From NCBI GenBank assembly GCA_050084515.1, contig CM114271.1, positions 8,494,001 to 8,558,000 of the forward strand: a DNA stretch of 64,000 nucleotides. The letters are read 5' to 3'. The notes under the pieces are model-generated. The model worked only from the letters and a program-made list of their open reading frames with translations, was not told the DNA's origin and ran no database searches. The stretch comes from Blasia pusilla (Eukaryota). The position numbers were made by a program, and so were the translations under genes. Of the stretch, positions 21,721 to 47,400 are shown piece by piece; position 1 is the first letter of the stretch; each line of letters opens with the position of its first letter.

Positions 21721-21798
21721 CTCTTGGGATTCATGAGCTTGGTTGCGCACCCATGACTACTATAGGGTATCGATCTATGGAGAGAAAGTTGAGTCATC

Positions 21799-22128: not shown

Positions 22129-22138
22129 ATCTTATGAT

Positions 22139-22155: not shown

Positions 22156-22171
22156 AGAGTTTGTTGCTATA

Positions 22172-22605
22172 TGTAATTTATAAGAAGTTTACGAATTGAT
22201 CTTTTTACAATAATTTTAATGAGTTCGATTCCCAAGAGGATCACGATTATGTGGAAATAGAGTTCAAGATGGCATTTATCTTGCAATAGTTGTAGTTAAG
22301 TGTTTACAATTCAGATTCAATCACTTATCAGTGTATTCTTCTCTCTCTTAGTACCAAGATTTCTTTCCTCGATTCTCTCTAGTGGAATTGAATTCACGCT
22401 CAAGTAGATTTTCACTCAACATCAAAGAACCTTATAGAGACCTCAACAAGAAGATGGCTTCTCCTACTTTCGGAACTCAATCCATCTAGGCAGGCTACTC
22501 TCTGTCAAGCAGATGTCTTACAACTCAATGTTGATTATTCTAATGATGAAGGCGTTCTCCTGATTCACTCTTCACTCTACAGACCCAATAAGAATTCTCA
22601 GGCAT
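22172..22605 (-). repeat. Truncated 5' LTR of gypsy copy 1
   Basis: Near-identical to 12778-13210. Confidence 0.85.
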
Positions 22606-24414: not shown

Positions 24415-25300
24415 TGTAATATACAAGAGTTTCTATTTTACAGTCGTTTACTAAGTTCGATCCCAAGAGGATCATTGTTTGATGAAAAGAGAGTTCAAAA
24501 TTACAATTCCGTTGTAATAGTTGTATTTAAATGTGTATGAGTTATATTCAATGTCTTATCAATATCTTCGGATCTTTCCTAGTACCAAAGTTTCTTTTCT
24601 CAATTCTCTCTAGTGGAGTTGACAGCATGCTTAGGTAGATTTCCTCTCGATATCAAGAAACCTCATAGAGACCTCAACATGAAAGTTGGCTTCTCCTACT
24701 TTCGAAACTCAATCCATCTCGGCAGGCTACTCTCTGTCCAACAGATTTCCTACAACTCTATGTTGATTATTCCATTGGTGAGAAAGGTTCGTCTGATTCA
24801 CTCTTCACTCTACAGACCCAAAAAGAATACTCACACATAACCATTGCACATCAGAATGAATGAATGATTGCTTTACTACTCCATCAAAAATGAGAAAGCT
24901 TGAAAAGTGTATACAAGCTCGAGAGGGTACTACTCCCTTGCTCGGACCATTCCTACAGCATGAGGACGTCGTAAGAGAATGATGATGACAGCTACTTCTA
25001 TGCTTCTTAAATACTCTCTGAAGGAGGAGTGATCTAAAGATTTGAAGCACTTTTTTATGGAGCTGGTGTCTCTTCAATATTTGTAACTACCTAGATCTAT
25101 GGTGCTCTATTCTTTTCCTAAGATCCCTATGAATCCGTAGAACAAAACTGTCATAACTACCAATTTGATACAAAGGGTTACGTCTTTTCCTATTCTAACT
25201 GTTCTAACTATGTGTCGCGTGAAATCACTGTCAATCTTAGCTTCGCTTTGCTGCTAAGTCTGGACCTCTTTTGCTTTGCTTGAGGATGAAGCTCTTTCTC
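24415..25300 (-). repeat. 3' LTR of gypsy copy 2; its inner part and the PPT are deleted
   Basis: Highly similar to 57673-58560, then jumps into the extra ORF. Confidence 0.85.
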
Positions 25301-27116: not shown

Positions 27117-27449
27117 GCTAGTAGATCTCGGTGAACGCCCCGCTTTGGTCTACTATGCAACTTTGTGGTGACTCCGTCTATGAAAATACCCGTCCGATTA
27201 AGTAGGGACGCTTATATAGTCCCAGCGTTATGCGGGCTCTTGGCCTTGGCGCCGAGACTGCAATAGTCAATTTGGCGCTTCGCTCTTTTGCGAAGCTCAA
27301 AAACTCTCGCGCTTTGCGCCTCTGCGAAGCTCCCATACATTACGCTTTGCGCTTCTGCAAAGTTCCAATAACCTCGCGCTTCGCCCTTTTGCAAAGCTTC
27401 AGGCAGTCGCTCACCCCCTTCCCTTTGGTTTCAGTCCAGGTAGGGTTGA

Positions 27450-29748
27450 GGCTCATGATACCGCCGAACATGCATCCCATTCACACGAGTGGGCAGGGAT
27501 TCGCCTTGTAAGGTCCCCAACTGCAGTGATTCGTTATCATAGATGGCCAATACCCGGTAGGGTCCCATCCAGTTTAATTTTAACTTTCCGGGGAACTTTA
27601 GTCAACGGTTATCATACAATAGCACCAAGTCTCCAACACTTATAGATTGTGGCCGGAGATGTCGATCGTATCGTTGCTTGCGTTCATTTTGCACATGTTT
27701 GGTCTGGCGTAAAGCCAACATGCGTGCTTCCTCCAACGCAACTAAGGTCTCATTCCTTCCTTGGAAAACCTTGCCGACTGCCTCTGTTCTCGTTCCTTCC
27801 AACACTCGATAAGTGGTCAAAGCCCATTCAATAGGTGTTAAGGGATGAACGCCATAAGTCAGGAAGAACGGGGTATACTTTGTAGTAACCTTCTCGGCTA
27901 TTCGGTATGCCCATAATGCCACGGCGATTTTCATGTCCCAATCATAGGAATACGTTACCGTCAATCGATTCAATATTCGGCAGATCAGGCCGTTAGATTT
28001 TTCAGTCAACTCGTTGGCTTTAGGGTTGTAGGGCGTGGTCTTCCGATGCTTAATGAGAAAGTGTGACGTTAAAGACTAAATAGTTTGGTTCAGAAAATGG
28101 GTGCCTCAATCACTTACTAATTCCAATGGGCACCCATACCGGGTGATAATCATTTCGTATAAAAATTTGGCCACAGCCTCACTATCATCTCTGCGCGTCA
28201 CCACCGCCTCCACCATCTTGGTACAATAGTCGGTAGCTATCAAAATATATTTTTGCCTTGTGTGGCGAGTAGCAAGGGAAATGGGGCCAACAAAGTCAAT
28301 ACCCCATTTTTCAAACGGTGCTAGCGGCATGATGGGTATCAAAGGCCACCTTGAGGTAGCCGTTGGTCGACCTGCTCTTTGGCATGCATCACAACTTTGG
28401 ATAAAGTTACCTACATCTTTGTACATAATTGGCCACCAATAACGTGCGGACAAGATTTTCTTAACGGTATTTTTTACAGCGTAGTGTCCACCAGAATCAA
28501 CCGCATGCATGGCTCTTATGACGTGGAGGATTTCTTTTGCTTCCAAGCATGGCCGATATTATCCCCTGACATATCTCATATGGTCCTATCTTATGTAGAA
28601 AGAGTGCTCGTTCCTCCGCTGTCATAGGGGCGGGAAGTCGCAGAGTAATTAAGAAATGCAAAATATCTTCATAAAGGGATTGGCACAACCGGTCCTCCGT
28701 GATCTGGAACAGGTCTTCATCGGGAAAGGTGTCATCCACGGATTGTGTGAGGTCCGCGTTCGTCATCCTCAACCGGGAAAGAAAATCCGCGTTGGTATGA
28801 ACCTTGTCGGCCCGGGTAATGACATCAAATGTGAATTCTTGGAGTAACAGGATCCATCGCACAATGCGACCTGACAGGTCCGCCTTAATCATTAATGGTC
28901 GGAATGATCTACATGGAAGACAAACTCGTACCCTAATAAATAGTGACGGAACTTTTTGCACGAGAAGACCATGCCTAACGCCTCTCGTTCGGTAGTTGTA
29001 TATTTCTGTTCCGCTGAAGATAGTTGTCGGCCTGCTTAGTAAATCGGGAAATCATGTTTGTTCTCATCCAGCTGGCTGAGCACCACTCCAATGGCAAACG
29101 AGGATGTATCCACATATACGTGGAAGGGTTTGGTCCAATCGGGGGACCAAAGTACAGGAGCCTTTTGCAATGCTTCCTTTAAGGCGTCAAATGTTGCTTG
29201 GCAGGGTGGGGTCTACTCCCATTCGGTAGTTTTTTAAAATAATGTGGTAAGGGCTCCTGCTTTCACCGCGTAATCCCTAATAAACCATCGGTAATATTGG
29301 ACGTGTTCCAAGAATCCTCTCAATTCTCGGAGATTTTTGGGTGGTTCCAATGCGACGATAATATCCACCTTGGCCTTGTCGACTTCAATTCCTTGAGCCG
29401 ACACTCTGTGCCCCAACAAAATCCCTTGTTTATGGCAATATACGATTTTTCCAGATGGAGGGACAAATGCACTTCGCGACAACGAGCGAGGTTTAATTCT
29501 AATTTTTCCAAGTGTTCGGCTTATGTACTGAAGATACAAAAGTCATCTAGGAAAATTTCAACAAACTTCCGCAGATACTCTTGGAAGATGGAGATCATCA
29601 TCCGTTGGAAGGTGGCCGGCACATTGCACAACCCAAAGGGCATCACACGATATGCGAAAGTTCCCCCGTCCGTGGTGAAAGTTGTGAGGGGCCGATCTTT
29701 TTCTCGTATGGATACCTGGTTATAAGCCGAGTATCCATCCAAAAAGAT
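27450..29748 (-). pseudogene. Gypsy copy 2 pol, part 3 (RT C-terminus, RNase H, integrase)
   Basis: MPFGLCN, IFLDDFCIF, CDACQR, WGIDFVGP, ELVSD and ALWAYR motifs. Confidence 0.9.
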
Positions 29749-30747
29749 GGGGCTGGTATTCTGACAGGAGAGAGTAAGAGAGGAGAGTCTCTCTTAAAAA
29801 AAAAAGGCCAAATCCGCCTCCTCTCTTCAAAACTTTTTGACATATTTGAAATTTTTGTTTGCTTTAAAATTCAGGAAATCTTTAGAAGAGAGTATTTAGT
29901 GGTCCATATTTGGCCCTAAAAAACCTCCTCTTTCTCGGGGCGAGAAAAAAAGGAGACATCATAAGACCACCTAAACATTTTCCATCACTCTCCATGTGAG
30001 CCTAAGTTTCTTAACATTCCTGTCTCGGTCAACAAAAAGCGTGCCCTTGGTATTTTTGTTGGAGGACCACCCGGATGGGTACCTCTCTTTGCAGGATTGT
30101 TTGCATCATGGCCTCCCTAAATTGCCCCATAACCAACTTTTTCGGTTATGAATGGTGTCGACTCAAGACCAACTTTCTGAAATGTGAACAAATCAGATCC
30201 TTAGGTGAGAAACGAGAGTTGCACCCCTCCCAACCCGTAAGAAAGCTCACCATAAGAAACGAAATATTTTTAGAAGTGATTTTCTTCCACCCTGCACCCA
30301 CGACGATCTAACGGGTTGGGAATCCGAAATGGCAATCCGACAGGTAGTAGGAATCCTGCACATCTTAGACAAGAAAAGAAGCCTACAACTAGTTGGACGA
30401 ATGAAGGGAAACGAGCCAAAAGTCAAGAAGCCGCCACAATGCGCCAGAAGTTGGTCTCTGCGGGATAGAGTCCGATCACTCAAGCAGTCAACCTGTCGGA
30501 ATCCGACAGGTTTCTTGGAAATGGTTAAAAAGTTGCAGTGGGCAAAAAGCAAAAAGTCGGAATCATACGAGTTGCAGAATTGTAATTATGAGTAGCTAAA
30601 AGAACACAATCCACAAGTCCAAAAACATATTCCAGAAAACTTTTACAAACACTATTATGGGTTGAAAAAATCTCGTCCTTTATTACCTCCAAAGGAACCT
30701 CGGAATTGTACATTTCACCTAGTCTATGATTTCTTTAGCCTCGTCAT

Positions 30748-31008
30748 CTACAAATTTACTCCTAACTCTCCTCGGTGACAGTACCAAAGGAATGTCCTGG
30801 GATTCAAGTGGCTCCTTTGGCCGATTGTAGACGGGGATCGAAAATGTTGGCGAATTCGAGAGCCTTGGCCCCTCCCTAGGTACACCATAACGGTCCCATG
30901 TAACCTGTCTCGAGTCCCACCACCTTCCTCGGCAGTATACCTTGTACGCTCTGCAATGTGACACCCATCCAATATCAATATCTGCTCCGTCCCCGGTAAT
31001 ACCATTAT
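30748..31008 (-). CDS. Small conserved ORF (about 85 aa) downstream of the ParB-MTase gene
   Basis: The same frame and stop position are kept in diverged copy E (11959-12201), with several synonymous changes. Confidence 0.4.
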   Translation of the reverse strand: MMVLPGTEQILILDGCHIAERTRYTAEEGGGTRDRLHGTVMVYLGRGQGSRIRQHFRSPSTIGQRSHLNPRTFLWYCHRGELGVNL

Positions 31009-31533
31009 GGCAACCGCACAGGTAGAAGGAATCCAACACGTCTGAGAGAAGAAAAGAAGAAGCCTACGCCTGCCTTTACGAGTTGAGGGGAAGGTGCCAA
31101 GGGAAGAAGCCCACCAGACTGCCTCTTAAGTTGGACCAACAGGGAAAGGGTCTGATTAGGCAACCTGTCGGAATCAGACAGGTTGCCTGGAGGTGGTAAA
31201 AAGGGTGCAGTGGTCAAAAAGCGAAAAGTTGCAAGGAGGAGAAATCCGACGGGTTGCAGTGGTCATAAAGTGAAAGTTGCAAGCAGGAGAAATCCGACGG
31301 GTTGCAAAATAGAAGTCCGTGGAGTACATAGACGATCACATTCGTAAAGACAAAAAATGATCAGCAAACATTTACAAGCACCATCATCGATCGAAAAAAT
31401 CTTCTTCTTTATATCATCCAAAAAAAGCTCGGAACTGTACATTTGATCTATTCTATGAAATCTTTTGCCTCATTATCAAAAAACTCCCTACTCCAAACGC
31501 TGCAGTCAAGCTGGGTCGTTGAGTTCTTTGAAC

Positions 31534-34500
31534 TCACTCGTCATCGTCCGAGAGCTCTTGCAAAATCACTTTCGGCCTTGCCCTCCTGATTTTGGGAATC
31601 GTTGGAAGTGACGATGGAGTCACTACCAAGGGTGGCTCTGGAACCGGAGCTCTCGGCTTCGGTGGAGAGTTGTACGCCCCAACGAGCCTTTTGTATTCTG
31701 CCTTTGCCTCCTTGCAAAGGTCAAATAGTACCTGCCTTCCTCAGGCGAGAAGAATGTTCTGCCACTCGCGGGCGCCTTTGATACTTGCCCTGAAAAGTCC
31801 CACTAAGTCGAACACCAAGTCACCCGGCCTTGAGCACGGACTCAATGAGCGTTTGAATCGGGTGGCGACTTTTCCCTTCCTCCCGTAAGTGGGTATCTTG
31901 TCTTGCATGTAAATTCCTGGGGGGGAATTGTACAAACTATCTAAGCTGTACCCATCTGAGCATGGATCCACAGGATCCCGGATCTTGAACAGCTGGAAAT
32001 TGTGCTTGGGCCGATCGAAGCAGTAGACGTAGGAGTGGTCCATTTGTAAATCAGCACGTTGGAAACAATGTCAGAAACTAAAGAAGTCGCCTTGAGAAGA
32101 TTTTCAATAACAGACTTTGGATCAACCTGTCGGAGTCTGACGGGTTGTTTTGTCCCATATCAACCCATCGGAACCCGACGGGTTGCAGTTGCTTTTGGAT
32201 TTTCCCAGTTGATTTTGGTTTTTGGATGCAACCCGTCGGAAGGCGACGGGTTGCTAGCCTAGAGCAACCCATGCTGGCTTGAGAGCAACCCATCGCTATC
32301 AGGCGGGTTGCATCCAAAACCAAAATAAACGGGAAAACTCCAAAAGCAATCGCAACCCGTCGGTTCGACGGAGTTTGCGTACACCGCGTTTTCCCTGTGT
32401 ATGTGGGAAAGATGCAACCGTCGAAAACCGACGGGTTGCTCTCACCGAGCATGGGTCGCTCTAAACCCGACAAGAACCCGCCTTCCGACGGGTTACTCAC
32501 GGACAAAAAAAACCCAGATTGACTCTCATTCTACACATCATTATAAGATAATTGAAATTATTGTACAGGAATTGAGCCTTACCCGAATCTGACTCGTCGC
32601 GGATCGGAGTGGGTACTCGTTTTTATGATCCACGACAGCCGTCCTCCACTTTAGCGACCTCTTGGCGACTGGAGGTTGAAGAGCTCGCCCTCGCTCCCTC
32701 CATCAATACCAAGAAGCAGCCCCTGTCACTCGGATAGGCGTCGCAAAGGAGAACAAAAGTGCAACTGGTCATAAGTGAGCGGCACATTCCACTCAGTACC
32801 TCGTCCGCCGGATTTTCGCCCCACAATCGCAACCTCGAGGGCAGATCGGCGATCAAGAGATCCACCGCAACCTCTTCCACCACTCCATTCACCGTCCAGG
32901 CAACGTGCCCGTTTTGTTGGAGCTTCCGCCCTAGCGTTGTCAATTTTTGATGGCGGTTGTCGACGCTTGAGAATCTATTCGGCTCATCGAAGAAAGAGGT
33001 GAATCGAAGGAGGACGCTTGTCGGGTCGTTGTTTGTCTGTCTTCCCAAGGATGATGGGTGTATTCTCCTTGGGACAACCTGTGCACCTCTCGCTCGCTTC
33101 TCTCCCTAGTCAGGGACGGCTTGTCGGGGTTTCTATGACCTCGGATTCGTGGCGTTTTCTTCGCCGAGGACTTGGTCCGACCCTCTCTCCCGCTTTCGTC
33201 CGGACGATTCCGCCTCGGCCTCTCATCTTGAGGCTCTCTTTGGGAAGTCTCGGCCTCTGAATTTTTCCCTCCCCTCGCCTTGCCTTTGAGACCCATTTGT
33301 GGATTTGTCTTTGGCTGTCCGGACCTTGGAAGCCAACTCGGCTATCTCGTGGGCTGCTCTTCTGCATCTCCTCGAAGAAGTCTTCAGCGGACGAAATTGG
33401 GGATGTCGTCTTGTCTGAGGCCCTTTGCATCATGAAGCACTCGTAATTCCTTATCCGTGATGTCTTCAGGATCGTTGAAGTCGAGCCAAATGGGGCAATT
33501 CTCCACCTCCCAATCGGACATGTGCTGCCCCATCTCCACGTCGTACATGGAGAATGTCTCTGCATCCGGCGGCGAAGCCCACAATTTCAAGGCTGCTGGT
33601 AATTTTCCCCACGTACCTGCGTTCTTACATTGGATGAGGTACCTGAAGACCATCCGTTGGGCAGCTTTTAGTTGAACAGAATCGGCCGTCTGCTCCTGTA
33701 GATCTCGCTTCTTCTTCGCTTGATCCCGTTTGTTCCCCTCTACTTCTTTGTCAAGCTCTGCCTGAGGGAGGACGCAAACCTTGAACATGGTCTTGAATCC
33801 AGGGTTTTTGGTTGGCTTGTCCCGGATGTCGTGGAGCCAAACTTGTAGTCTCCAGAATTTTCAAGGTTTGCTTCCGGCGGAATGGGCTCTAATCTTCGAG
33901 CTCGCTTGCGGACCGTCGCCCAAAGACGGACTTCCCGATTACCGCAACGCGCCCCGTAACGACCATTCGCGTAGCTAATGCGAGATCATCGGATCGGACA
34001 CACCCTAAGGATGGTGTGCCGCCCTCTTCCGGGCCTCTCAACCTCGAGATCGATTTTCATCGATCGTATCCTCTGAACTCGCTAATCCCGGATAACGCAA
34101 AACGATGCACGCGATCCGGCGACACTTTCTCCCCAATCCGACCATGCGGATCTTCATCCCTCTTCCGACGCTTGATAATCGCCTTGACTCCTTGTAGAAC
34201 TCCGGACCAAGTTTGGGGTTGAGAATGCTCATGTATCGCTGCATCTTGCTCGCCCAGCGTATTTTTTGCAGCAGATACAAACGGCTTGATGAATTTGGCG
34301 CGCCAGACGCAGATACCTTCTCCCTCCGCTCGGCTCCATTGCGGCGCTTTTTTCTTGCGGCTTTGTATCTTCGACCAAAGCAAAGGATGGTTACTGGCTT
34401 TGCATCTTGAGAAATAAACTTGTTTGCCCAAGTTTTCTTCTTAATCTGAGCACCCTTTGCAAGCATCATCTGATTGACAAGGGCATCGCCAAGAACCCCA

Positions 34501-36100
34501 GTACTCTCCCGGTGCGTCGTAAGCACCTTCCTCACCCGATCGCAGTCCTGGATCCAATGGTGGGTGACATTCCCTTCCGATACAATCCTGCACATCCAAA
34601 CTCAACCCGTCAGGAAATTACATGGGTTCCTACAACCCGTCGGACTCCAACGGGTCGTCACAGCTCAAGGTCGGATTCTAGCAACAAGCTAAATGATGCA
34701 ACCCATCGGAGTCCGACGGATTGCATTCAGATAAGCAAACCGTCGGACTCCGACGGTTTGCTTTGGGCCAAAAACTAGTCAAATCTATGTTCAATCAAAC
34801 AAGTCGTCGGAGTCCGACGAGTTGCTTTCGGCAAAAACAAACCTAACCCATTCATCAATCGAGCAACTCGTCGGAGTTCGACGAGTTGAGAAAGTGTTAA
34901 AGATACTCACGTGTTCATGGCATGCATTGCCATCTCCACCGTCGCCATGTGATGAGGGTATGGGTGAAGGACCACTGCCTTCACGCAGAAATGTGCCTCC
35001 AATGAGTTGGGCCGCTCCTCTGCAAATTTGGTCCACGCCATGAACCTGTGATTTCCATCCTAGATGAAGAAATGCAGATTCCTCATCCAGCTGAATTCCG
35101 TGCCCTCAACTTGCCTTCTGAAGTCCTGGTCTCGCATCCTTCAGAATGTGTCGAGCTTTTCCAAGTCCTCCTCGGTAACCACAGCTTGGGTTCCATGCTT
35201 GTCGTAAGGCTGAACATAGAAGGGAGGAAAGCTGTCGACGTAGGATGTTGTCGCCGCCGATTGTTTTAGCTTCGCGATGTCCTCGTCGGACTAAATTTCG
35301 CGGACGTATTCCATTGTCCGCAATCGGTAGAGTGGAATCCTCGGGGCGTTGTGGCCCTCCATGAGTGCCATCTGCTTTACCACTTGTCAGAACCGGGACA
35401 AGAATAAGCTACACTAGAATCCCAATGAATTGCAATTCTCATAATTAAAAAAACCCAGAACCTCTCTTACCCGCTCGAAAATGGGGTCGGTTTCTTGACC
35501 AGCTAACTTGTCTGCGACAGAGGCTGGCAAATCGACTGGAAACTCGTCGATCCGATAGAGGTCGATGACCTCTGCCAGGCTTGGAGTCGAGAATGACCGC
35601 TCTCCGGCTTCTTCGGCCATGTCCACCATCTCCACGTTGGCGGTCCTCATGACCTCGTCGTCATCGATTTCAACTTCTCTTGTTTCCACTATGTTGATTG
35701 TGTCCCCGGACTTTGTGGGGGACATTTTTCGCATCTCAACACTTGCGGTTGGACGGGCTGGGCTATCGTCAATGGCTATCACTTTTTCCCTCCTCGCTTT
35801 AGCCAATTCTGCCCTCCTCACCGACGCGTCAAGACGCTTCTTTTCTCTCTTTTCGTCGGCGATCCTTTTCTTCAAGGCCTGCGACGTCTCGGCCTCTTTG
35901 TTCTCTTTATCTAGCGCCTCTTGAACACGTCTTGCAAGAAGCACTTGGTTATGCATCTCCGCTTCCCTTTCCCGCTCCTCGATTTCCTGCTGCCTAATTT
36001 CATTCGCCGAACGAGGCCCAGGAGAAGCTGACGTAGGAGTCCTAATGGACTTGGGAGTGAAGCTCCCAGACTTGTTGGCTTGTGATTTTTTCCTCGTCAT
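31534..36100 (-). pseudogene. Four-exon ParB/Srx-domain plus amino-methyltransferase-like gene, copy B
   Basis: Exons are about 36100-35471, 35383-34911, 34587-32583 and 32043-31534, with GT donors and compatible phases. Exon 2 reads IPL.RL..M..VR....DIAKLK...FFI*DGNHRFMAW. VDLLIADLPS and GDLVFDLVGL motifs are present. Confidence 0.78.
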
Positions 36101-36374
36101 TTTTGCCGGAAATGCCTCCACCTATGTCCACGACAAATTCCTTGATCAGTCGCCTTGCTGATGTCGAGATGGGAGCTCGAATCGCCTTGATGGTTAGCTC
36201 GAATCGTCCCGCTATCGCTCGGTCGAACCGTCTCGCTCTCGTTCCCTCCTATCGACTCGCGATGTGTTGCCGTGTGAAATGCCCCTTCGTATCTGATCAG
36301 CTGCTGCGTGGGAGAGTGAGGAGTGAGGAATGAAGATCGCGAAATGAGAAACCGGAAATGAGCAATTTCTGCCC

Positions 36375-36382
36375 TATTTATA
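36375..36382 (-). promoter_or_regulatory. Putative TATA box of the ParB-MTase gene
   Basis: TATAAATA on the minus strand at the edge of the palindrome array. Copy C has TATAAAC near 49464-49470. Confidence 0.45.
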
Positions 36383-36469
36383 CTTTTCTAGCCGTTGGGC
36401 TGACCGTTGGGTCCCGTCCTCCTTTCGACGGCGACGTGCCGGATGTTACGGAAGTCCGAACGTGAAAAA

Positions 36470-37190
36470 TGGCAGCCCGTCGAAGTCCGACAGGTGGCGC
36501 GGCTCCGCCATCCTGGGTACGTCGCCACGTGTGCGAGCAACCCGTCGGAGACCGACGGGTCGAGCGCCTCCGTCGTCTTGGAAAAAGAACGCGAGGTACC
36601 CGCGCAACCCGTCGGAGACCAACATGTTGCGCGCCTCCACCATCCTGGGTACGTCCCCACATGCGCAAGCAACCCGTCGAAGACCGACGGGTTGAGCGCC
36701 TCCGTCGTCTTCGGAAAACAACGCAAGGTACCCGCGCAACCCGTCGAAGCCCGACATGTTGCGCGCCTCCGCCGTGTTTGGGACGGGAACAGGACCTATC
36801 TTGGGCAATCCGTCGGAGACCGTTGGGTTGCACGCTTCCCTCATCAAGGGTTAGGAACGAGGGCTTCCCGTGCAAGTCGTCGGAGTCTGGCTGGCTGCAC
36901 CACAAGGCGAGGCCCTTGCGCAACCCGTTGGACGGCGACGGGTTGCACGCTTCGCCGTCTTTGGGCTAAAAGGCGAGGCACCCGCGACACTCGTCGGGAA
37001 CAGACGGTTTGCACGCCTCCGGCATCTTCAGGCAAGAAGGATCAGTATCCGAACAACTCGTCGGAGAGCGACGGGTTGCTCGCTTCGAAAATGTTTCGCA
37101 GAAGCGTGCAACCTGTCCGATGCCGACGGGTTGCAGGCTTCGGTTAGCTTCGGGTAATTTCTGAGTTACCAGGACTCCGACGGGTTCCAA
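36470..37190. repeat. Palindrome array in the divergent intergenic region of copy B
   Basis: Copies start near 36473, 36538, 36605, 36670, 36737, 36806, 36873, 36921, 36987, 37054 and 37109, with a 65-69 bp period and a 132-bp dimer. Confidence 0.9.
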
Positions 37191-37343
37191 GTGTGATTCG
37201 CAACCCTCTGCTTCCCAAATCCGGTAACATATTGCAATAGAATTGAATGTGTTACAGAATTGGATCCATTGTGTCAGACAATGTCACCCACCGAATTCAT
37301 CTTGTCAATAAAAAACTGTCAAGAGTATCTGTTTCCTATTCAC

Positions 37344-37350
37344 TATAAAT
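37344..37350 (+). promoter_or_regulatory. Putative TATA box of the transposase gene
   Basis: TATAAAT about 50 bp upstream of ATG 37396, conserved at about 50430. Confidence 0.5.
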
Positions 37351-37395
37351 TAAATATTCTCATTCTCAGTCTCCTCCCGTTGGAATCTTCTTGGA

Positions 37396-40300
37396 ATGGA
37401 TAATTATGTTAAGCTCACTTGTGGCAGTCATCTGGCGGCCCTTCCTCAATCGGAAATCATTCGACTCCAAGCTCGTGAGTCTTTCAGAGCAGTGGATGAA
37501 AATTTTCTATCTGTTCGATTTCTTCTTCAAATTGGAACCATCTTTGTATCCAAAGATGTTAGGGTGGATGGTACGGAAGACATAATAGGTGAGACGGTCC
37601 AGCCAGTGACCTCAGACCGTAAAGTATGGAATCTCCTACCTCTACCAAATGGTCAATACAGAGTTTACGGCCCTTTCGACCGATTTGTTTCCCAAGTAGA
37701 CGGTCTAGAATTTCCTAGTGCTCCGAGCTCTACTTTTGCAACTCCAAGCTCTGCAGATCTGGCTTCGACTCCAACTTCGCACGCTCATAACAATGTTGTT
37801 TTTCCAGAAGAGATTCCGGATGTTATCAACCTCGGTGGATCTGCTTTCGGGCACCAATCGGGCCTCGTCCGCCTACTCGTTCTCTTGCGAGTATCGGCAA
37901 TAGTTTGCTTTTCGTCTCGCCCTTGAAAATTTTCAAGCACATTCTTGTCGACAAGCTGCCGCCCACGCACGATGGTAATTGCATTTTTGAGTTGCCTCCA
38001 CTTGCCGCTCTGCTCAAAAGAAGGATGGAGGGCGCTGAAGGGTATGGATGAAAAGTCTCGATTGTCATCGATGGTGCAGGCTTCAACGGACGGTGCTTCA
38101 ATTCAGATGGTCCTTGGATTGTCTCCCGCCGCCAATGCGTGGGAGCCTTGGAGTGTAGAAGTCCAAAGCATGCCCGTTTCTAGAGCGCAATGGCGAGTCA
38201 ATACGCCGCAATTCCCTCCCAAGAATGCAGAAACTCCATACGAGGTCGGTGCCACCATACCGGGGAGGCCATCGATGTCCTCATTGTCGCATCGCCCTTC
38301 TGCGTTGGAGCGTGTCTGCATACATATTTTTCATTGTCCACGACTTGGGCTCCACGCCGAGTATACAAGGCTGGCTGTCCATGTTGGCTCCCACACTCAT
38401 CCTGTGACCGATGCAATTCAAAGCCACATCAAGGAGGATGTGGCGAAGAAAGTAGCCGAGGTCTACAGAAACTCTCCGTGTTCAAAGCCCGGAGTGATCA
38501 AGCTCACAACGGCATCACAAATTTGTGAACAATTGCTTGGAATCCTTGGACAGGGCAAGATCACGGCGGTTGAGGAGAAACAACTCTGGGAAAATCTCGC
38601 ATTTCTCGCGGATCCTGAATGCTTCCGAATTTGCGTCGATACGAGTTCGGATGGAAAGACGGGCGAAATGGATGCCATCGCTAATCAAGGCCAACTTTAG
38701 ATTTCCATTCATTCAGAGATGGCAGTTCATGGGCCAAGGAGGCAAGGGATCCAGGGCCTATGTCTTTGAAATGTCAACCACAGGTCCGTCGAGTGGCCTT
38801 GATCTTATAGATCGAATGAGGGAAGGGGAAGATCTTTACGGGAGTTGGGTAAGCTTTGATATTTGCTCTGAGTCTTTGAACAGATGGTTGGCACGGGTGC
38901 TCACATTTATGACCATGTGGAGAAGGGACTCAAAACTATATTTGTCTGTGAAGTAAAGGCGTAAGACGCGTTGGCGGTTTGAAGATGTCTTTGGTTACTC
39001 TTCTTGGAGGTGGTGAAGGAAAACAAAAGGCCACCTCCGGAAATTTATGGGTTCATGGCGGACAATGCACAACCTGGGTGGATTGCTATCCGGGAAGTGT
39101 TCAGGGTGAGAGGTTCAACCGGAGAGGGAAAGGTCGGATGCTTTCCATTGGCAAATGATCTGTGACCCGGTACACCAAATCTTGCATCAAGGAGAATAAG
39201 AGGACAGAGCATGTCACTCTACTCCAACGCTGCAGGGATAGCAAAACCTTGAAGCAGGCCATGGAATGCCAGGAAGAACTTCATGGGTGGTGGAGGAAGC
39301 ATGCGATTGAGGGGAAGTACAAAGAGTTGTGCTCTTGGTTGAGTCGGTGGACTGTACGTATGAGACAATGGGGAAACTTCATGCGGCAGGTGAGTTCACT
39401 ATTTTGTCTTGTCAAGCTCACACTGAGAATTGTTTGTAAAGTTGTAGCTCAGGATGAGAAGCGTGGGAATTATATGGATTTCAAACCCAAGAAACCAAGC
39501 TAGCTGTCGGATGCGACGGGTTGCCCAAGTGTGCAACCCGACGGAAACTAACGGGTTGCCCAAGGGTGCAACCCGACGGAAACCGACGGGTTGCCCGAGT
39601 GTGCAACCCGACGGAAACTGACGGGTTGCCCAAGGGTGCAACCCGACGGAAACCGACGGGTTGCATCCAGATGTTTGGTGTCGTCCCGAGTGTGCAACCC
39701 ATCGGGACCCGACGGGTCCCAGAGTTGTTCATGGGATGCCGCCTTGCAACCCGTCGGGTTCCGACGGGTTGCAGTAGGTGGGTTTAAGGTTACAACACGT
39801 CGGGACCCGACGGGTCGAAGAGTCGTTCATGGGATGCCTCGAGCCTGCAACCCGTCTGGTTCCAACAGGTCGCTTATTTCTTTGACTTCAAGGTTATTTA
39901 CGTTCCCTTCTAACATTGCCGTCGTTGCAGGGATTGAACGTTCATGAAAATGCCCTCCGTCCCAACACAAGTGGAGCTGAAAGTGTTCATTCCTCTTGGA
40001 GGTCGTCACAAGCATGCCAACGAATTTCACTTGTGGAGGCATGCCAACAAGACCAGGCAAGAGCAATGCTACAGTCTGCATCATCCCATATCTTTCTCAC
40101 AAAAGGCATAACAAAAGGAAAAGGGCCGTCGATCTACGAGCTCTATGTCGATGTATTTGTGAGATCTCAGTGATGAAAAATTGTATGTCGAAGCCTTCAA
40201 CCGGTGCGTAGCTGGAACTCCACTCGAGCAAGACGTACACATAGGTGGGGATATTCGTGGGCGGGTTTCAAGACGTCCCATACAGATGGTGGTAGAGTAG

Positions 40301-41431
40301 TCCGAACGAGACTCGTGGAGACCAGATAAGTATCTTGACTTCAGGCAGGTGAAGAGGCAACATCGAGGAACGAATCAGGTGATTGATTTGGATGAGGAAA
40401 TTACACCGCCCAGGTATTCGGGGACCTCGGACCCGTCCCAAATCCGTGATGGAGTTACTTCTCCAAAATCAGTGAATGTTTTATTTCAAAAGCCCTCCGT
40501 TGCTGGAAGTTCGCAACATCCTGTCACTAGGGTGGTTCAACAATATGGGATTCCGGTAGTGGAGGTGGATTGCAACCTAAAACGGTGGCATATATCTCGG
40601 AGCAACCCAGGACATGGACCTACTTGCAGGGCAGGATCTGATGACATTAGGAGAGCATGCGGCACTTTCCTAAATAAGAACTGTACAAGGACTGGACGAC
40701 CTCTGCCTGGGTTTTGGGGACTCAAAACCTTTGATCGTTTCACGAGGACCGGGGATCAATTGAAGTACTTCTTCTGCCCAAATGAATCTTGCGCTTTCCG
40801 GAAGTCTTATCCGGCTGCCATTGGAGCTCCCGTGAATATCCCCACGATTTGGCCCATCGCCGCAGGCACGAACTGCACTCAAGACGAAGTGGACAATCTT
40901 ACAAGTGCCGGTTTGGACTCAGACGGGGAAGTTCGAGCATGTTTGCATTACTGAGAGACCTTCGTGATTTAGTATTCAACCCAAGATTGATGTCAACATG
41001 TACCCGGAGAAGGTGGATGATCTCAATCCATTATTTCTGTTTGAGTCCAAAAATGGGGTGAAGAGAAACAGAATGTGCAGGCCAACGGTGGAGAGAGCAA
41101 AGCGAATTGCATCAGCTCGGGAGGAAAAAATGGAGATCATTGCCACGAAAGATGTCTTGAGTGGCAATGGAATAGGAAGGATGTATTGGGTCAGGACAAC
41201 CACTGTAAATTCAAGTGTCATAGGGGTGTATGTGGTGCACATCTGTTGCTTTCCCACATGTTCATGTGATGACTTTGTCCAAAGAGAGACAAGTGGCAAA
41301 AGGTATTTCCTTGTAAGCACATGTACTATGTGTTCTTTGGTAGTTTTAAGAGAGTCGGAGGTAGGAGTAGGAATCCACCAACCAATTCATCCCTCAAAGA
41401 AGTGCGAAGTATTTTAAACAAACCACTTTGA
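37396..41431 (+). pseudogene. MULE DDE transposase with C-terminal SWIM zinc finger, copy B (intron 39390-39930)
   Basis: WVSFDIC (D, about 38858), FMAD (D, about 39061), DAFHW at the CxxH position, NTSGAESVHS (E, about 39979), and SWIM CSC...CKHMYY. Phase-0 intron CAG|GTGAGT...TTGCAG|GGA. Frameshifted. Confidence 0.85.
39500..39870. repeat. Palindrome array in the transposase intron, including four 35-bp tandem units
   Basis: CAACCCGACGGAAACYGACGGGTTG plus a 10-bp linker at 39534, 39569, 39604 and 39639. Confidence 0.9.
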
Positions 41432-41841
41432 GGATGCAAAATGAGGTTTTAGATTGTACTTTTATTTTTCCTCAACCTTCACTTTGAGCTTGAACTCTAT
41501 TCAGCCCGCGGAAAATGATAGATTTTTCCCAGACCTTGGATGGAAAAAGTGATTGGTTCCACACTTATGATTCCACTGATTTTTCAGTTTTCTAAATTTT
41601 GTGCAATTTGCAACTCGTCGGACTCACAGGGGTTGCCAAAATATGGAAGAGGAAAAAAAAACTGTGGGATTGTTGAATAAATGAACAAAAAAGTGCAAAA
41701 AAATTCACACAAAAAGTTTCCTCTCTTCAACCCAACGGAAACTCTCTTAAAAAAAAGTATCTATTTCGGTTGAAGGTAGTTTCCTCTCTCCTCTCTCCTC
41801 TCTTCCTCTCTTCCTCTCTTCCTCTCCTCTTACCGCACCTC

Positions 41842-42613
41842 CAAAAAGATATAACGCTCGTGGCCGGCGACTTTGTCCAAAATACTGTTAGTTAAAGGTA
41901 GGGGGTGATGGTCCTTTAAGGTGGCCGAATTCAATTTCCGATAATCCTGGCATACTCTGATTTTTCCCGTTTTTTTTTTGGGTACAATTACAATGGGCGA
42001 CACCCATTCGTTGCTTAACACAGGATAAATTATTCCTGCTTCGAGATGTTGGTCGATTTCGTCCTTGACTAACAACGAGTACTTTGGGTTGAGGCGATAC
42101 TGCCTCATCCGTACCGGGACCGCACCTTCTTTTAGGTCAATTCGGTGTTCACCATACCATGTTGGAATTCCTGTCATTTCATCCATGGAGTACGCAAACA
42201 CATCCAAATACTCAAACAATAACCTTTTGTACTTAATGAGTTCGGTTGGAGACAAATCCGCCAAGAGGCGTACAGACTTCTGACCTGTAATTAAGACCTG
42301 CACGTAGTCTTTTTCTTGAACCATATTTTCTGTGAACTCGAATGTGCTATGACCCAGCTTCTCTTCCTCTCGGGTTGACCTCTGTTTGCTAGGTACCGAC
42401 TTCTTGTCTATTTCATAACATTCTAAATAATACACATTATACGAGGACTCCGTAGCTGTAATGCGCTCTTGATCTGACATATAGCCTTCATCCGTCGGTG
42501 GCGTTTCTCCTTGGGGTGGTTGTGATTTCCACGATAGCTTGATGAGTCGTTTTGAGACCTGGTCCGGAGCCTGGAATGTGAATCGTCTCCTTTTCCAGTC
42601 CGTAGTCACTCTC
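41842..42613 (-). pseudogene. Gypsy copy 2 pol, part 2 (RT N-terminus) between two MULE insertions
   Basis: WVSPIVIVPKK...RVCQDYRKLN...RYIFL, bounded by TSDs. Confidence 0.92.
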
Positions 42614-44409
42614 GGGGGCTGGTATTCTGGCAGGAGAGAGTAAGAGAGGAGAGGAAGAGAGGAAGAGAGGAGAGTCTCTCTTCAAAAAAAAGGGCCAAAT
42701 CCGCCTCCTCTCTTCAAAATTTTTTGACATATTTGAAATTTTTGTTTGCTTTCAAATTCAAGAAATCTTTAGAAGAGAGTAGATAGTGGTCCACATTTGG
42801 CCCTAAAAAAACCTCCTCTTTCTTGGGGGCGAGAAAAAAGGAGACATCATAAGACCACCCTAAACATTTTTCCATCATTGTCCATGTGAGCCTAAGTTTC
42901 TTAACATTCCCTGTATCGGTCAACAAAAAGCAGTGCCCTTGATATTTTTGTTGGAGGACCACCCGGATGGGTACCTCTCTTTTTGCAGGGATTTTTGCCT
43001 GCATCATGGCCTCCCCTAAATTGCCCCATAACCAACTTTCTGTCAATTATGAATGGTGTCAGCTCAAGACCAACTTTCTGAAATGTGAAAAACTCAGATC
43101 CTAAGGCTCAGAAACCGAGAAGCTGCACCCCTCCCAACCCGTAAGAAAGCTCACCATAAGAAACGAACGATTTTTAGAAGTGATTTTCTTCCACCCTGCA
43201 CCCACGACAATCTAACGGGTTGGGAATCCGAAATGGCAATCCGACAGGTAGTAGGAATCTTGCACATCTTAGACAAGAAAAGAAGCCTGCAACTACTTGG
43301 ACGAATGAAGGGGAACGAGCCAAAAGTCAAGAAGCCCGCCACAATGCGTCAGAAGTTGGTCTCACCAGGATAGAGTCCGATCACTCAAGCAGTCAACCTC
43401 TCGGAATCCGAGAGGTTGCCTGGAAATGGTTAAAAAGTTGCAGTGGGCAAAAAGCAAAAAGTCGGAATCATACGGGTTGCAGAATTGTAATTCTGAGTAG
43501 CTAAAAGAACACAATCCACAAGTCCAAAACATATTCCAGAAAACTTTTACAAACACCATTATGGGTTGAAAAATCTCGCCCTTTATTACCTCCGAAGGAA
43601 CCTCGAAATGTACATTGAACCTAGTCTATGATTTCTTCACCTCGTCATCTACAAATTTACTCCTAACTCTCCTCGGTGATGCAGTACCAAAGGAATGTCC
43701 TGGGATTTAAGTGGCTCCTCCGGCGATTGTAGACGGGGATCGAAAATGTTGGCGAGTCGAGAGCCTTGGCCCCCCTAGGTACACCATAACGGTCCCATGT
43801 AACCTGTCTCGAGTCCCACCGCCTTCCTCGGTAGTATACCTTGTACGCTCTGCAATGTGACACCCATCCAATATCAATATCTGCTCCGTCCCCGGTAATA
43901 CCACCATGGCAACCGCACAGGTAGAAGGAATCCAACACGTCTAAGAGAAGAAAAGAAGCCTACGCCTGCCTTTACGAGTTGAGGGGAAGGTGCCAAGGGA
44001 AGAAGCCCGCTGATCTGCGTGATCCGAAGGGTCGATCGGCAACTGTCGGAATCAGACAGGTTGCCTAGAGGTGGTAAAAAGGGTCCAGTGGTCAAGAAGC
44101 GAAAAGTTGCAAGGAGGAGAAGTCCGACGGGTTGCAGTGGTCATAAAGTGAAAATTGCAAGCATGAGAAATCCGACGGGTTGCAAAGTAGAAGACCGTGG
44201 AGTACATAGACGATCACATTCGAAAAGACAAAATGATCAGCAAACATTTACAAGCACCACCATCGATCGAAAAAATCTTCTGCTTTATATCATCCGAAAA
44301 AAGCTCGGAACTGTACATTTGATCTATTCTATGAAATCTTTTGCCTCATTATCAAAAAACTCCCTACTCCAAACGCTGCAGTCAAGCTGGGTCGTTGAGT
44401 TCTTTGAAC

Positions 44410-47400
44410 TCACTCGTCATCGTCCGAGAGCTCTTGCAAAATCACTTTCGGCCTTGCCCTCCTAATTTTGGGAATCGTTGGAAGTGACGATGGAGTCACT
44501 ACCAAGGGTGGCTCTGGAACCGGAGCTCTCGGCTTCGGTGGAGAGTTGTACGCCCCAACGAGCCTTTTGTATTCTCGCTTTGCCTCCTTGCAAAGGTCAA
44601 CGATTCTGCCTTCCTCGGCGAGGAGAATGTTCCTGCCACTCTGCCAGGCGCCTTTGATACTCGCCCATGAAAGGCCCACTAAGTCGAACACCAAGTCACC
44701 CCGCCTTGAGTAGAGCTCGATGAGCGTTTGCATCAGGGCTGGCGACTTTTCCCTTCCTCCCAGAAGTGGGGTACTGTCTTGCATGTAAATTCCCGGGGGG
44801 GGGGGATTGTACAAACTATCTAAGCTGTACCCATCTGAGCATGGATCCACAGGATCCTGGATCTTGAACACCTGGAAATTGTGCTCGGGCCGAACGAAGC
44901 AGTACACGTAGGAGTGGTCCATCTGAAAATCAGCACAAAACAATGTCAGAAACTAAAGAAGTCGCCTTGAGAAGATTTTCAATAACTGACTTTGGATCAA
45001 CCTGTCGGAACCCGACGGGTTGCAGTTGCTTTTGGGTTTTCCAAGTTGATTTTGGTTTTCGGATGCAACCCGTCGGAAGGCGACGAGTTGCTCGCCTAGA
45101 CGAGCCCATGCTCGCCTGAGAGCAACCCGTCGCTATTACACGGGTTGCATCCAAAAACCAAAATCAACTACAACCCGTCGGGTTCCGAAAGGTTGAAGGT
45201 ACACCGCGGTTTTCCCTGTGTATGTGGGAAAGATGCAACCCGTCGGAAACCGACGGGTTGCTCTCAGCCGAGCATGGGCTGCTCTAAGCCAGCAACCCGT
45301 CGCCTTCCGATGGGTTGCTCACGGACAAAAAAAACCCAGATTGACTCATTCTACACATCATTATAAGATAATTGAAATTATTGTACAGGAATTGAGCCTT
45401 ACCCGAATCTGACTCGTCGCGGATCGGAGTGGATACTCGTTTTTGATGATCCACGATTGTGCCGTCCTCCACTTTAGCAACCTCTTGACGCACTGGAGGT
45501 TGAAGAGCTCGTCCTCGCTCCCTCCAGTCAATACCAAGAAGCAGCCCCCGCACACTCGGATAGGCGTCGCAAAGGAGAACAAAAGTGCAATCTGGTCATA
45601 AGTGAGCGCACATTCCACTCGGTACCTCGTCCGCCGGATTTTTCGCCCCCGATCGCAACCAGAGGGCAGATTGGCGATCAAGAGATCCACCGCAACCTCT
45701 TCCACCACTCCATTCACCGTCCAGGCAACGTGCCCGTTTTGTTGGAGCTTCCGTCCTAGCGTTGTCAATTTTTTGATGGCAGTTGTTGACGCTTGAGAAT
45801 CAAGTCATTCGGCTCATCCGAAAGAGGTGAATCGAAGGAGGACGCTTGTCCGGTCGTTGTTTGTCTGTGTCTTCCCAAGGATGATGGGTCAGTATTCTCC
45901 TTGGGACAACCCGGGCACCTCTCGCTTCCGCTTCTCCCTAGTCCAGGGACGGCTTGTCGGGGTTTCTATGACCTCGGATTCGGTGGCGTTTTCTTCGCCG
46001 AGGACCTGGTCCGACCCTCTCTCCTCGCTCGTCCGGACGATTCCGCCTCGGCCTCTCATCTTCAGGCTCTCTTTGGGAAGTCTCGGCCTCTGAATTTTTC
46101 CCTCCCCTCGCTTTCCTTTGAGACCTTTGTGGATTTGTCTTTGGTCTGTCCGGACCTTGGAAGCCAACTCGGCTATCTCGTGGGCTCGCTCTTCGCATCT
46201 CCTCCGAAGAAGTCTTCAGCCGACGAAATTGGGGATATCGTCTTGTCCCGAGGCCTTTGCATCATGAAGCACTCGTAAGTCCTTATCCGTGATGTCTTGT
46301 GGTCGTTGAAGTCGAGCCAAATGGGGCAATTCTCCACCTCCCAATCCGACATGTGTCGACCCATCTCCACGTTGTACATGGAGAATGTCTCGCATCCGTG
46401 GCGAAGCCCACAATTTCAAGGTCGCCGGTAATTTTCCCCACGCACTGCGTTCTTACACCGACGAGGTACCGAATACCATCCGTTGGGCAGCTTTTAGTCG
46501 AACATTATCGCCGTCTGCTCCTGTAGATCTCGCTTCTTCTTCGCTTGATCCCGTTTGTTACCCTCTACTTCTTCGTCAAGCTCGCTTTGAGGGAGGCGCA
46601 AACCTTGAACATGGTCTTGTATCCGGGGTTCTTGGTTGGCTTGTCCCGGATGTCGTCGAGCCAAACCTCATAATCTCGAGAACTTTCAAGGTTTGCTTCG
46701 GCGGAATGGGCTCTAATCTTCGAGCTCGCTTGCGCAGGCCGTCGGCCCAAAGACGGACTTCCCGATTACCCGCAACGCGTCCCAGAACGACCATTCGCGT
46801 AGCCAATGCGAGATCACTGGATCGGACACACCCTAAGGATGGTGTGCCGCCCTCTTCTGGGCCTCTGAACCCTCGAGACTGATTTTCATCAGTCGTATCC
46901 TCCTGAACTCGCTAATCCCGGATAACGCAAAACGATGCACGCGATCCAGCGACACTTTCTCCCCAATCCGACCATGCGGATCTTCATCCCTCTTCCGCTG
47001 ACGCTTGATAATCGCCTTCAGCTCCTTGTAGAACTCCGGACCAAGTTTGGGGTTGAGAATGCTCATGTATCGCTGCATCTTGCTCGCCGCGTATTTTTTT
47101 GCAGCAGATACAACAGCTTGGATGAATTTGGCGCGCTCAGACGCAGATACCTTCTCCCTCCGCTCCAGCTCCATTGCAGCGCTTTTCTTCGCGGCCTGTA
47201 TCTTCGACCTGCAAAGGATGGTTACTGCTGCATCTTGAGAAATAAACTTGTTTGCCCAAGTTTTCTTCTTAATCTGAGCACCCTTTGCAAGCATCTGATT
47301 GACAAGGGCATCGCCCAAGAACCCCCTGTACTCTCCCGAGTGCGTCGTAAGCACCTTCCTCACCCGATCGCAGTCCTGGATCCAATGGTGGGTGACATTC

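Follow-up and report, generated by a model that had tools for sequence, protein, structure and literature searches.

A decayed, probably Mutator-type transposon of Blasia pusilla with a methyltransferase-like accessory gene and arrays of a 27-bp palindrome

We describe a family of transposable elements from Blasia pusilla, found in a window of 64,000 nt (the whole stretch analysed: assembly GCA_050084515.1, contig CM114271.1, positions 8,494,001-8,558,000, forward strand; coordinates below are those of the window). Its reference member is a 12.1-kb element at 29749-41841 that carries a putative transposase gene and, head-to-head with it, an accessory gene, here called gene 2. The C-terminal half of the gene 2 product is, by its sequence profile, a beta-class amino-methyltransferase (MTase) fold of the PF01555 type (N4-cytosine/N6-adenine, N4C/N6A), and its catalytic motif is replaced in every lineage that we have seen. 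Dozens of copies of a palindrome lie in the non-coding DNA of the element and nowhere else in the window. The reading that we favour, and regard as reasonably probable taken as a whole, is a decayed transposon of the Mutator superfamily, or of a very divergent branch, with an MTase-fold accessory gene and palindromes that would serve self-recognition.

Under this reading the element would be of an autonomous type, with two divergent spliced genes for a DDE transposase and an accessory protein. A dimeric protein encoded by the element would bind the palindromes, most likely through the N-terminal half of the gene 2 product or through the zinc-finger region of the transposase. By way of the palindromes the element would recognise itself, and would thereby control its two genes or its chromatin, or assemble a transposition complex. 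A preliminary description of the same DNA had proposed a Mutator-like element with an active ParB-MTase gene and cognate palindromes, and its claims are taken up with the results that bear on them.

Element copies and boundaries

The element family has six members within the 64 kb: two full copies, three partial copies and one miniature. Copy 1 (29749-41841, + strand), full length and decayed, is flanked by identical 9-bp target-site duplications (TSDs) of CAAAAAGAT at 29740-29748 and 41842-41850, and copy 2 (42614-54055, +) is flanked by GTCACTCTC on both sides. The two copies are 91-94% identical by self-BLAST, in which copy 2 is matched over 42649-54024. Both were inserted in one long terminal repeat (LTR) retrotransposon, of which an uninterrupted paralogue lies near 18.4-19.6 kb. 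The flanks of the two insertions overlap on this paralogue by exactly 9 bp, at 18625-18633 (copy 1) and 19383-19391, and the 9-mer is present singly at each of these empty sites. The perfect duplications, and flanks that overlap by 9 bp on the empty sites, firmly establish both the boundaries and the TSDs of 9 bp, and the 12-kb unit repeated at 42614-54055, as first proposed, stands.

The partial copies that had been placed at 1-5272 and 10565-12777 were recovered by self-BLAST with slightly different limits. Copy 0 (1-5271, aligned over 79-5271, - strand) is inverted, is clipped by the start of the window and belongs to another subfamily, with 86-90% identity. Copy 3, the fourth copy (10566-12763, +), is an older left-end fragment of ~78% identity with its left terminus at 10566, and it includes the last exon of gene 2 (12640-12272, -). 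A fifth fragment (9064-10551, -) is the right part of an old copy, ~80% identical to 40157-41655. The sixth member is a miniature non-autonomous derivative of 597 bp (55495-56091, +), identified by its termini, its palindromes and a near-perfect duplication. The fragments at 9064-10551 and 10566-12763 are in opposite orientation and only 14 bp apart, and the pair looks like one family copy inserted into another. Copies 1 and 2 share their orientation, and their insertion points are ~760 bp apart in one retrotransposon copy, which suggests local hopping or a preferred target.

The termini form an imperfect, GA-rich inverted repeat. The left terminus (29749-29810, +) starts with GGGGCTGGTATTC and continues in GA-rich (GAGAGG)n repeats, and the right terminus (41780-41841, +) consists of TTCCTCTC-type repeats and ends in CCGCACCTC. 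In local alignment the two ends scored 35 (copy 1) and 62 (copy 2), and none of 200 shuffles scored above 28; as the sequence is of low complexity, these scores are to be read with caution.

Every family copy in the window is dead. In copy 2 an intact 281-aa frame (51221-52063) covers the D...D core of the transposase, and the last exon of gene 2 (44413-44952, -) is likewise intact; this copy lacks ~630 bp that include a SWIM-like exon (~53776-53781, against 40944-41577 in copy 1) and also ~200 bp found in copy 1 at 37947-38147. The best-preserved frames for gene 2 from exon 3 to the last exon are those of copy 0, where they lie on the + strand of the window. Because copies 1 and 2 have nonsense codons in common, their source must already have been defective, and it presumably moved in trans.

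Structure and selection of gene 2

The start codons of the two genes, at 37396 (+) for the transposase and 36100 (-) for gene 2, are divergent. Gene 2 (31534-36100, -) was modelled from DNA alignments of three copies, using GT/AG sites with matching phases, together with tblastn, Pfam and profile matches; it is decayed, and its splicing is a prediction. Exon 1 (36100-35471) is K/E-rich and is followed by a 99-nt GT...AG intron. Exon 2 (35371-34911) has three in-frame stops and a DGNHR box at 35059-35048, and ends at a phase-2 donor, CAC|GTGAGT. The codon split by this donor is completed by the start of exon block 3 (34587-32583), which contains LLIADLPS in the position of MTase motif IV (32859-32836) and ends in ...SQIR|GTAAGG. 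The last exon (32043-31534) contains the putative S-adenosylmethionine (SAM)-binding block DLVFDLV (31821-31801) and ends in ...ELSDDDE*. Exon block 3 has frame breaks in every copy, and the acceptor of the last exon, TTTTCAG, is intact in copy 2. The model is coherent in three copies, in agreement with the spliced gene, head-to-head with the transposase, that had been described.

Nonsense codons common to copies 1 and 2 include one before DGNH and that of HHP*GV. At one codon the copies differ, with TAG in one and TGA in the other, which suggests a TGG that decayed independently in each. Copy 0 is free of these stops over the part that it covers.

Between subfamilies the differences in gene 2 fall in excess on third codon positions: 91 of 204 (p = 0.003) in one comparison and 79 of 171 (p = 0.0015) in the other, the two comparisons not being independent. 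In one of these two between-subfamily comparisons non-coding DNA had diverged more than coding DNA, and a frame comparison of copy 1 with copy 2 did not separate coding from non-coding DNA. The third-position excess implies that gene 2 was functional in the lineage of the element, and as a pattern of substitution it shows past purifying selection on this gene, the absence of which had been named beforehand as grounds for abandoning the earlier interpretation.

The methyltransferase-like half

The last exon matched one Pfam family only, PF01555 (N6_N4_Mtase), with E-values of 0.0012 in copy 0 and 0.027 in copy 2, over positions 165-220 of the 221 in the profile. A HMMER search of 1.84 billion representative sequences with this exon gave three matches. 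One was genuine (P0003), a hypothetical protein of the moss Ceratodon purpureus that has paralogues of ~90% identity on other chromosomes of that species; the other two (P0001 and P0002), proteins with internal repeats, were set aside as spurious.

When the moss protein was searched against the window by tblastn, its matches were colinear with gene 2. Residues 432-534 matched the exon with VDLLIANLPSG (E 2.6e-6), residues 585-657 matched the last exon of each of three copies (E 1.2e-9, 9e-8 and 6e-10), and residues 4-109 matched exon 3 weakly (E 0.08). The moss family (M758_9G084500 and its paralogues, P0003-P0006; Ceratodon genes 9G084500, 3G218200, 1G310400 and 6G158200), which is multi-copy on several chromosomes, is thus homologous to the part of gene 2 that begins with exon 3 and ends in the acidic C-terminal tail, at 27-36% identity, and its motifs IV and I are non-canonical at equal positions. 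Its annotated start lies within the equivalent of exon 3, and it differs from gene 2 in having no K/E-rich or DGNHR part. A third lineage was found on a metagenome contig of 1512 bp (L012), whose product shares 40% identity with the moss protein and has GAPE as its motif IV; two or more apparent introns interrupt the gene.

A profile of this family, searched against PDB sequences, gave six matches, five of them beta-class amino-MTases, with DpnA the best (E 0.012). Among plasmids the last exon had a single tblastn match (E 0.1), itself a ParB_N + N6_N4_Mtase fusion. We built local profiles from 11 such phage and plasmid ParB-MTase fusions, the MTase half from 10 of them, and against this half-profile the last exons of the three copies were the top 3 of 2505 window frames. 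Searches of PDB sequences with single exons returned nothing relevant, as did NCBIfam; a word-seeded protein search with the motif IV exon among proteins of near length returned nothing, and the ESM atlas gave no usable match to the N-terminal 240 residues of the moss protein.

Profile-profile alignment, which had been proposed earlier as a check, supports the fold. With hhalign and a trimmed template, the family aligned with the MTase domain of the fusions at 78.6% probability (E 1.7e-5) over 198 columns that run from motif IV to motif I, and with L012 added this became 91.4% (E 9e-7) over 197 columns; reversed controls scored at most 17.1 and column-shuffled controls at most 24.1. The motif order of the beta class (IV, HPTxKP, I) is kept. 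A first hhalign result of 99.5% (E 2.8e-23) was rejected, as reversed queries scored equally high on a gappy acidic tail of the template. This tail, at columns ~482-530 of alignment A2, gave ~99% probability for reversed and unrelated queries alike.

From the Pfam, local-profile, PDB-profile and hhalign results, the C-terminal half of gene 2 is a beta-class amino-MTase fold, and in this respect the earlier assignment of an N4C/N6A-MTase-like part was sound. Its further reading as an ordinary methylating enzyme fares worse. Under the invariant DPPY of the fusions, motif IV reads NLPS in copies 0 and 2, DLPS in copy 1, DAPE in all four moss paralogues and GAPE in L012, so that the canonical [D/N/S]-P-P-[Y/F/W] tetrad is absent from all three lineages seen. 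In motif I (FxGSGTT in the fusions), the window has DLVGLSGAS and the moss proteins DWSA(N/S)TGAS, with the aspartate and second glycine kept and the first glycine lost. Because motif IV is non-canonical in every lineage, it is doubtful that the protein is, or was, an active MTase, and we infer a non-catalytic or altered role in binding DNA or SAM rather than ordinary base methylation.

The ParB-like box

Exon 2 reads LHFFI*DGNHRFMAW, that is, a single ParB/Srx-like box after a hydrophobic strand, with a stop codon directly before the box in both copy 1 and copy 2. Around this box the preliminary description had drawn a ParB domain, which our searches do not bear out beyond 11 residues. The Pfam ParB model (PF02195) had no match up to E 10 in the read-through frames or exons of gene 2; the exon had no match in PDB sequences or NCBIfam, and none up to E 10 by tblastn against plasmids and phages. 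Against the ParB half-profile from the 11 fusions it scored 1.6 bits (E 47), rank 16 of ~2510. On the ParB box, hhalign aligned 11 residues with a score of 20.5 and a probability of 1.6-3.3%; the score was matched by 1 of 120 shuffles and none of 120 natural frames, and the resulting p of ~0.01 is not independent, because the exon was chosen for its DGNHR motif. A single-sequence AlphaFold model of the exon had a mean predicted local distance difference test score (pLDDT) of 36.1, too low to be of use. We estimate that the word DGxHR occurs about once by chance per window of this size; the position of the box, N-terminal to a phage-type MTase, raises the odds of ParB. On balance a ParB/Srx fold in exon 2 is possible, and we lean slightly against it.

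The box bears on one explanation of the whole system, in which gene 2 would encode an active ParB-MTase fusion whose ParB part loads on the palindromes as on parS, and whose MTase part writes N6-methyladenine or N4-methylcytosine as a self or anti-silencing mark. The MTase fold itself (by Pfam, local profile and hhalign) speaks for it, as does the identity of the one prokaryotic match to the last exon, a fusion of just this kind. So do the DGNHR box, which follows a hydrophobic strand and precedes the MTase as in phage and plasmid fusions and is placed by hhalign on the ParB box, and a target that is a long perfect palindrome in arrays. The loss of PP[YFW] in three lineages and of the first glycine of motif I are hard to reconcile with such an enzyme, the ParB tests by Pfam, profile and tblastn were negative and that by hhalign very weak, and the box comes from an exon selected for its motif and follows a stop in both copies. 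We consider an active fusion very unlikely.

The palindrome arrays

The dozens of palindromes reported earlier in the non-coding DNA of the element are confirmed, and all of them lie in members of the family. The pattern first noticed is 25 bp long, CAACCCGTCG-N5-CGACGGGTTG, and with up to 3 mismatches allowed it has 78 matches in the window, against 0 in 100 dinucleotide-preserving shuffles. Copy 1 has 28 of these, copy 2 27, copy 0 17, the fourth copy 5 and the miniature 1; at the same stringency there is no match outside the element family within the 64 kb. With its flanks the consensus extends to a perfect palindrome of 27 bp, GCAACCCGTCGGA-n-TCCGACGGGTTGC. The palindrome had 0 exact matches in each of the metagenome, prokaryote-genome and viral sets of contigs that were scanned.

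The units are arranged in arrays with a period of 35 bp or ~64-67 bp, beside gene 2 and within its predicted introns, all in non-coding DNA. In copy 1 an array of 9 units with a period of ~65-67 bp lies between the divergent start codons (36473-37133), one of 5 units in the putative gene 2 intron between exons 2 and 3 (34633-34888), and another of 5 units in the putative last intron of gene 2 (32123-32438). A further array, of 7 units with a 35-bp period (39534-39817), lies in a predicted transposase intron between the [D]xxH and E boxes. The window also has 20 isolated half-sites, mostly beside arrays; in each of the two full copies one lies ~230 bp inside the right end. A 48-bp tandem repeat 3' of gene 2 (31206-31306 in copy 1, ~44100-44200 in copy 2) has units that end in a half-site, CGACGGGTTGC.

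The core of the palindrome is conserved across copies that are 10-22% divergent, and the arrays differ in length, with 10, 5 and 7 units, for example, in the same intron of different copies. Deamination of methylated cytosines yields C>T and G>A changes. These two changes make up 82 of the 134 mismatches to the consensus arms, the spectrum to be expected from such deamination.

These features can be set against the view that the arrays are fast-evolving, hairpin-forming tandem repeats that have no protein partner, gene 2 being a host gene captured in the manner of a Pack-MULE. Tandem repeats are common in large DNA transposons, the number of units differs between copies, and all gene 2 copies in the window are broken, as this view would have it. 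Free drift would not be expected to leave a near-perfect 27-bp core in copies so divergent, with departures of mainly one kind. A captured gene, for its part, sits poorly with a complete multi-exon gene that has a start, a stop and a promoter side, occurs in two subfamilies whose differences fall in excess on third positions, and has multi-copy relatives in moss. We give this view very little credence.

The miniature bears on which protein might bind. Its left terminus is 95% identical over 39 bp, it has the family right end, and its flanks TTCAATTCG and TTCAATTCC are identical at 8 of 9 positions. It keeps two palindromes and one half-site, and the rest of its interior, rich in A/T, is filler with no alignment to the parent. 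A derivative reduced to ends and palindromes was nevertheless mobilised, which hints at a role of the palindromes in cis in transposition and keeps the transposase as a candidate binder. The palindrome had been called cognate to the gene 2 protein; as a predicted partner, the transposase fits the miniature at least as well.

The palindromes might be cis-acting sites of the transposase, comparable to the subterminal repeats of En/Spm or the MURA site and required if excision or transposition is to be efficient, with gene 2 unrelated to them. Besides the miniature, with a duplication of its own, the half-site near the right end of both full copies (~230 bp inward) is in keeping with this, and the CX5CX18HXH and CxC...CxH zinc-finger-like motifs of the transposase could read DNA. 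In the full copies, however, the arrays are internal, and none comes closer than 740 bp to the left end or 2 kb to the right. There is also a single miniature, and at 28 palindromes in 12,093 bp (~1 per 430 bp) chance could keep one or two. We take this to be somewhat unlikely. What the arrays suggest more generally is that the palindromes are probably docking sites for one of the element's own proteins.

The transposase and superfamily membership

The transposase gene (37396-41430, +) starts with MDNYVKL, is frameshifted and appears to be spliced; its frames and motifs, all on the + strand, were read by eye. In order along copy 1 they are a CX5CX18HXH finger (38317-38400), a first D box, GSWVSFD (38840-38860), a second D box, GFMAD (39049-39063), the [D]xxH box DAFHW (39137-39151), the E box GAESVHSSW (39973-39999), which follows the palindrome-bearing intron, and a SWIM-like CSC...CKH (41259-41329) that is frameshifted in copy 1 and deleted in copy 2. 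The spacing from GSWVSFD to GFMAD is 67 residues in the intact frame of copy 2. The order D...D...[D]xxH...E...CxC-CxH is what we take to be the Mutator transposase pattern. In the ESM atlas the clusters nearest to the 281-aa frame of copy 2 are MULE (Mutator-like element) or ZSWIM RNaseH-like, with a top score of 0.93, and the best ten family-bearing matches all belong to one clan, that of MULE.

Because of the 9-bp TSDs, the ordered motifs and these neighbours, the element likely belongs to the Mutator superfamily. Two results oppose this. The top ESM-atlas matches have 163-167 of 256 features in common with the query, below the 170 typical for true family members. Pfam was run on 110 frames from copy 1, 92 from copies 2 and 0 together, and 12 + 9 read-through frames or exons, with E-values up to 0.1-10, and among these 202 single and 21 read-through frames or exons it found no MULE (PF10551 or PF00872) and no SWIM domain. 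In decayed frames of the same window it does detect reverse transcriptase (RT), RNase H, integrase and gag domains, and its silence on the transposase must therefore be a matter of real divergence. A word-seeded protein search with the transposase core, among longer proteins, also returned nothing. Of the MULE DDE/SWIM transposase described at the outset, then, the ordered motifs and the MULE-clan neighbours hold, and a MULE or SWIM match in Pfam is missing.

The absence of such a match, together with the poor, GA-rich inverted repeats at the termini, would suit an element from some other DDE superfamily that makes 8-9-bp duplications. There is a precedent in red algae, where according to a preprint elements first called MULEs were re-classified as Plavaka/EnSpm by their common accessory genes (10.1101/2025.02.11.637652). 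Three members have 9-bp TSDs (8 of 9 positions in the miniature), the atlas neighbours are all of the MULE clan, and the D-67-D spacing, the [D]xxH and E boxes and the C-terminal CxC...CxH match the Mutator pattern, all of which argue the other way and leave an origin outside Mutator quite improbable. EnSpm and Plavaka elements make short target-site duplications.

Weighing the favoured reading

Several further points count against a Mutator-type element with an MTase-fold accessory gene and self-recognition palindromes. The splice sites of gene 2 and the binding of the palindromes by a protein are predicted, and the linkage of gene 2 to the transposase is known from a 64-kb window. No ParB, SET, MULE or SWIM domain was found by Pfam in any frame examined. 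The PF01555 matches scored 19.3 and 14.9 bits against a gathering threshold of 26.7 bits, and the motif IV exon alone ranked 160 against the phage-type profile, so was not recognised. AlphaFold, given the moss protein with an 8-row alignment, reached a pLDDT of 30.4, as unusable as the model of the ParB-like exon. The annotated moss proteins have no counterpart of exons 1-2. In the full copies the outer 740 bp on the left and 2 kb on the right are free of palindromes except for the one half-site.

Related systems

The closest prokaryotic counterparts of gene 2 are the ParB_N + N6_N4_Mtase fusions of phages and plasmids, such as M.PhiCh1-I of Natrialba phage PhiCh1, YcdA of phiH and the methylase of Wolbachia phage WO. 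They share with it an MTase domain that aligns over ~197 columns, the motif order IV, HPTxKP, I, and an N-terminal extension with a box of the DGxHR type. They differ in their invariant DPPY and GSG and in a ParB domain that Pfam sees, whereas gene 2 is spliced, far longer and part of a eukaryotic transposon.

The nearest eukaryotic parallel is the PAG cassette reported, in a preprint on Bostrychia moritziana, from Plavaka, Mutator and Zisupton transposons of red algae; there PAG2 combines PF01555 with SET, and PAG3 combines a weakly supported ParB-like domain with a 2-oxoglutarate (2OG) oxygenase (10.1101/2025.02.11.637652). As described there, the likeness lies in PF01555 and ParB-like genes, in copies that are mostly degenerate and in tandem inverted-repeat arrays beside PAG3 that are proposed as self-binding sites (10.1101/2025.02.11.637652); arrays of this kind are likewise present beside gene 2. 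PAG2 and PAG3 are separate genes in that account, whereas here a single gene holds both the DGNHR box and the MTase-like fold, and across all frames of the three copies Pfam matched neither of the PAG partners, SET and 2OG oxygenase. In the present case the closest relatives come from moss and the catalytic motif is lost; the PAG cassette is compared by its description in that same source. In the literature searched we found nothing on ParB or MTase genes in land-plant transposons, the red-algal preprint alone surfacing. The doubt voiced at the outset about novelty was thus half right: ParB-like and PF01555 accessory genes with inverted-repeat arrays have been described, in the 2025 preprint, in red algae, and for land plants none was found.

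Among Mutator elements, MuDR of maize (MURA + MURB) is similar as a two-gene element whose genes are convergent or divergent and whose TSDs are 9 bp. It differs in its long, good terminal inverted repeats, in a MURB that has no MTase-like domain and in having no internal palindrome arrays. According to one report, the accessory protein of MuDR is needed for insertion and interacts with the N-terminus of the transposase (PMC12973397).

Other comparisons concern the MTase or the arrays alone. The MTase domain of DIRS1 was considered inactive by Iyer, Zhang and Aravind, and it resembles gene 2 as a transposon-borne MTase with substituted catalytic residues, although it belongs to another MTase group (PMC4738411). 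Bdelloid N4CMT and Marchantia MpDN4MT1a/b show beta-class amino-MTases in eukaryotes, a liverwort included; these are reported to be active host enzymes, not transposon genes.

In the MULE VANDAL21 (Hiun) of Arabidopsis, the accessory anti-silencing protein VANC reportedly binds arrayed short motifs in the non-coding DNA of its own element. The combination of a MULE, an accessory protein and motif arrays is the same as here, and the likeness is functional: the VANC motif is short and non-palindromic, and VANC is not MTase-like.

A further scheme would bring these strands together. A bryophyte-type Mutator element might have turned a phage-type ParB-MTase into a catalytically silent, sequence-specific reader that would sit as a dimer on the CpG-rich 27-bp palindromes of its own element, in the arrays of the bidirectional promoter and the introns, and so shield the element from host cytosine methylation, or redirect it. 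We think this improbable as it stands. If true, the element would counter silencing in the manner of VANC and of PAG3 as proposed for red algae, by a device of independent origin that is made from a pseudo-enzyme.

Surrounding sequence

The window as a whole is eukaryotic and repeat-rich, with nested Ty3/Gypsy-type and Copia-type LTR retrotransposons recognised by Pfam. Ty3/Gypsy-type copies on the - strand, with gag, RT, RNase H and integrase, occupy 13000-29700, 41842-42613 and 54056-64000. A Copia-type fragment at 7885-8971 (+) has a GAG-pre-integrase, an integrase core and a retroviral SH3-like domain.

Significance

Few transposons are known whose proteins recognise the DNA of the element itself and alter its state. 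To our knowledge VANC of the VANDAL elements is the only transposon protein of this kind that has been tested, the red-algal PAG cassette being a proposal. The Blasia element would add to this theme a case from the bryophyte side of land plants, in which the protein is another one: a phage-type amino-MTase fold that bears the mark of purifying selection even though its catalytic motif is gone from every lineage seen. Should the palindromes prove to be sites of the transposase, the element would still be an unusually divergent branch of Mutator that Pfam does not see. Under the favoured reading it offers a testable pair, one protein and one 27-bp palindrome, and a possible function for moss proteins now annotated as hypothetical, and it would be a case of DNA-modification hardware of prokaryotic or phage origin recruited by a eukaryotic transposon.

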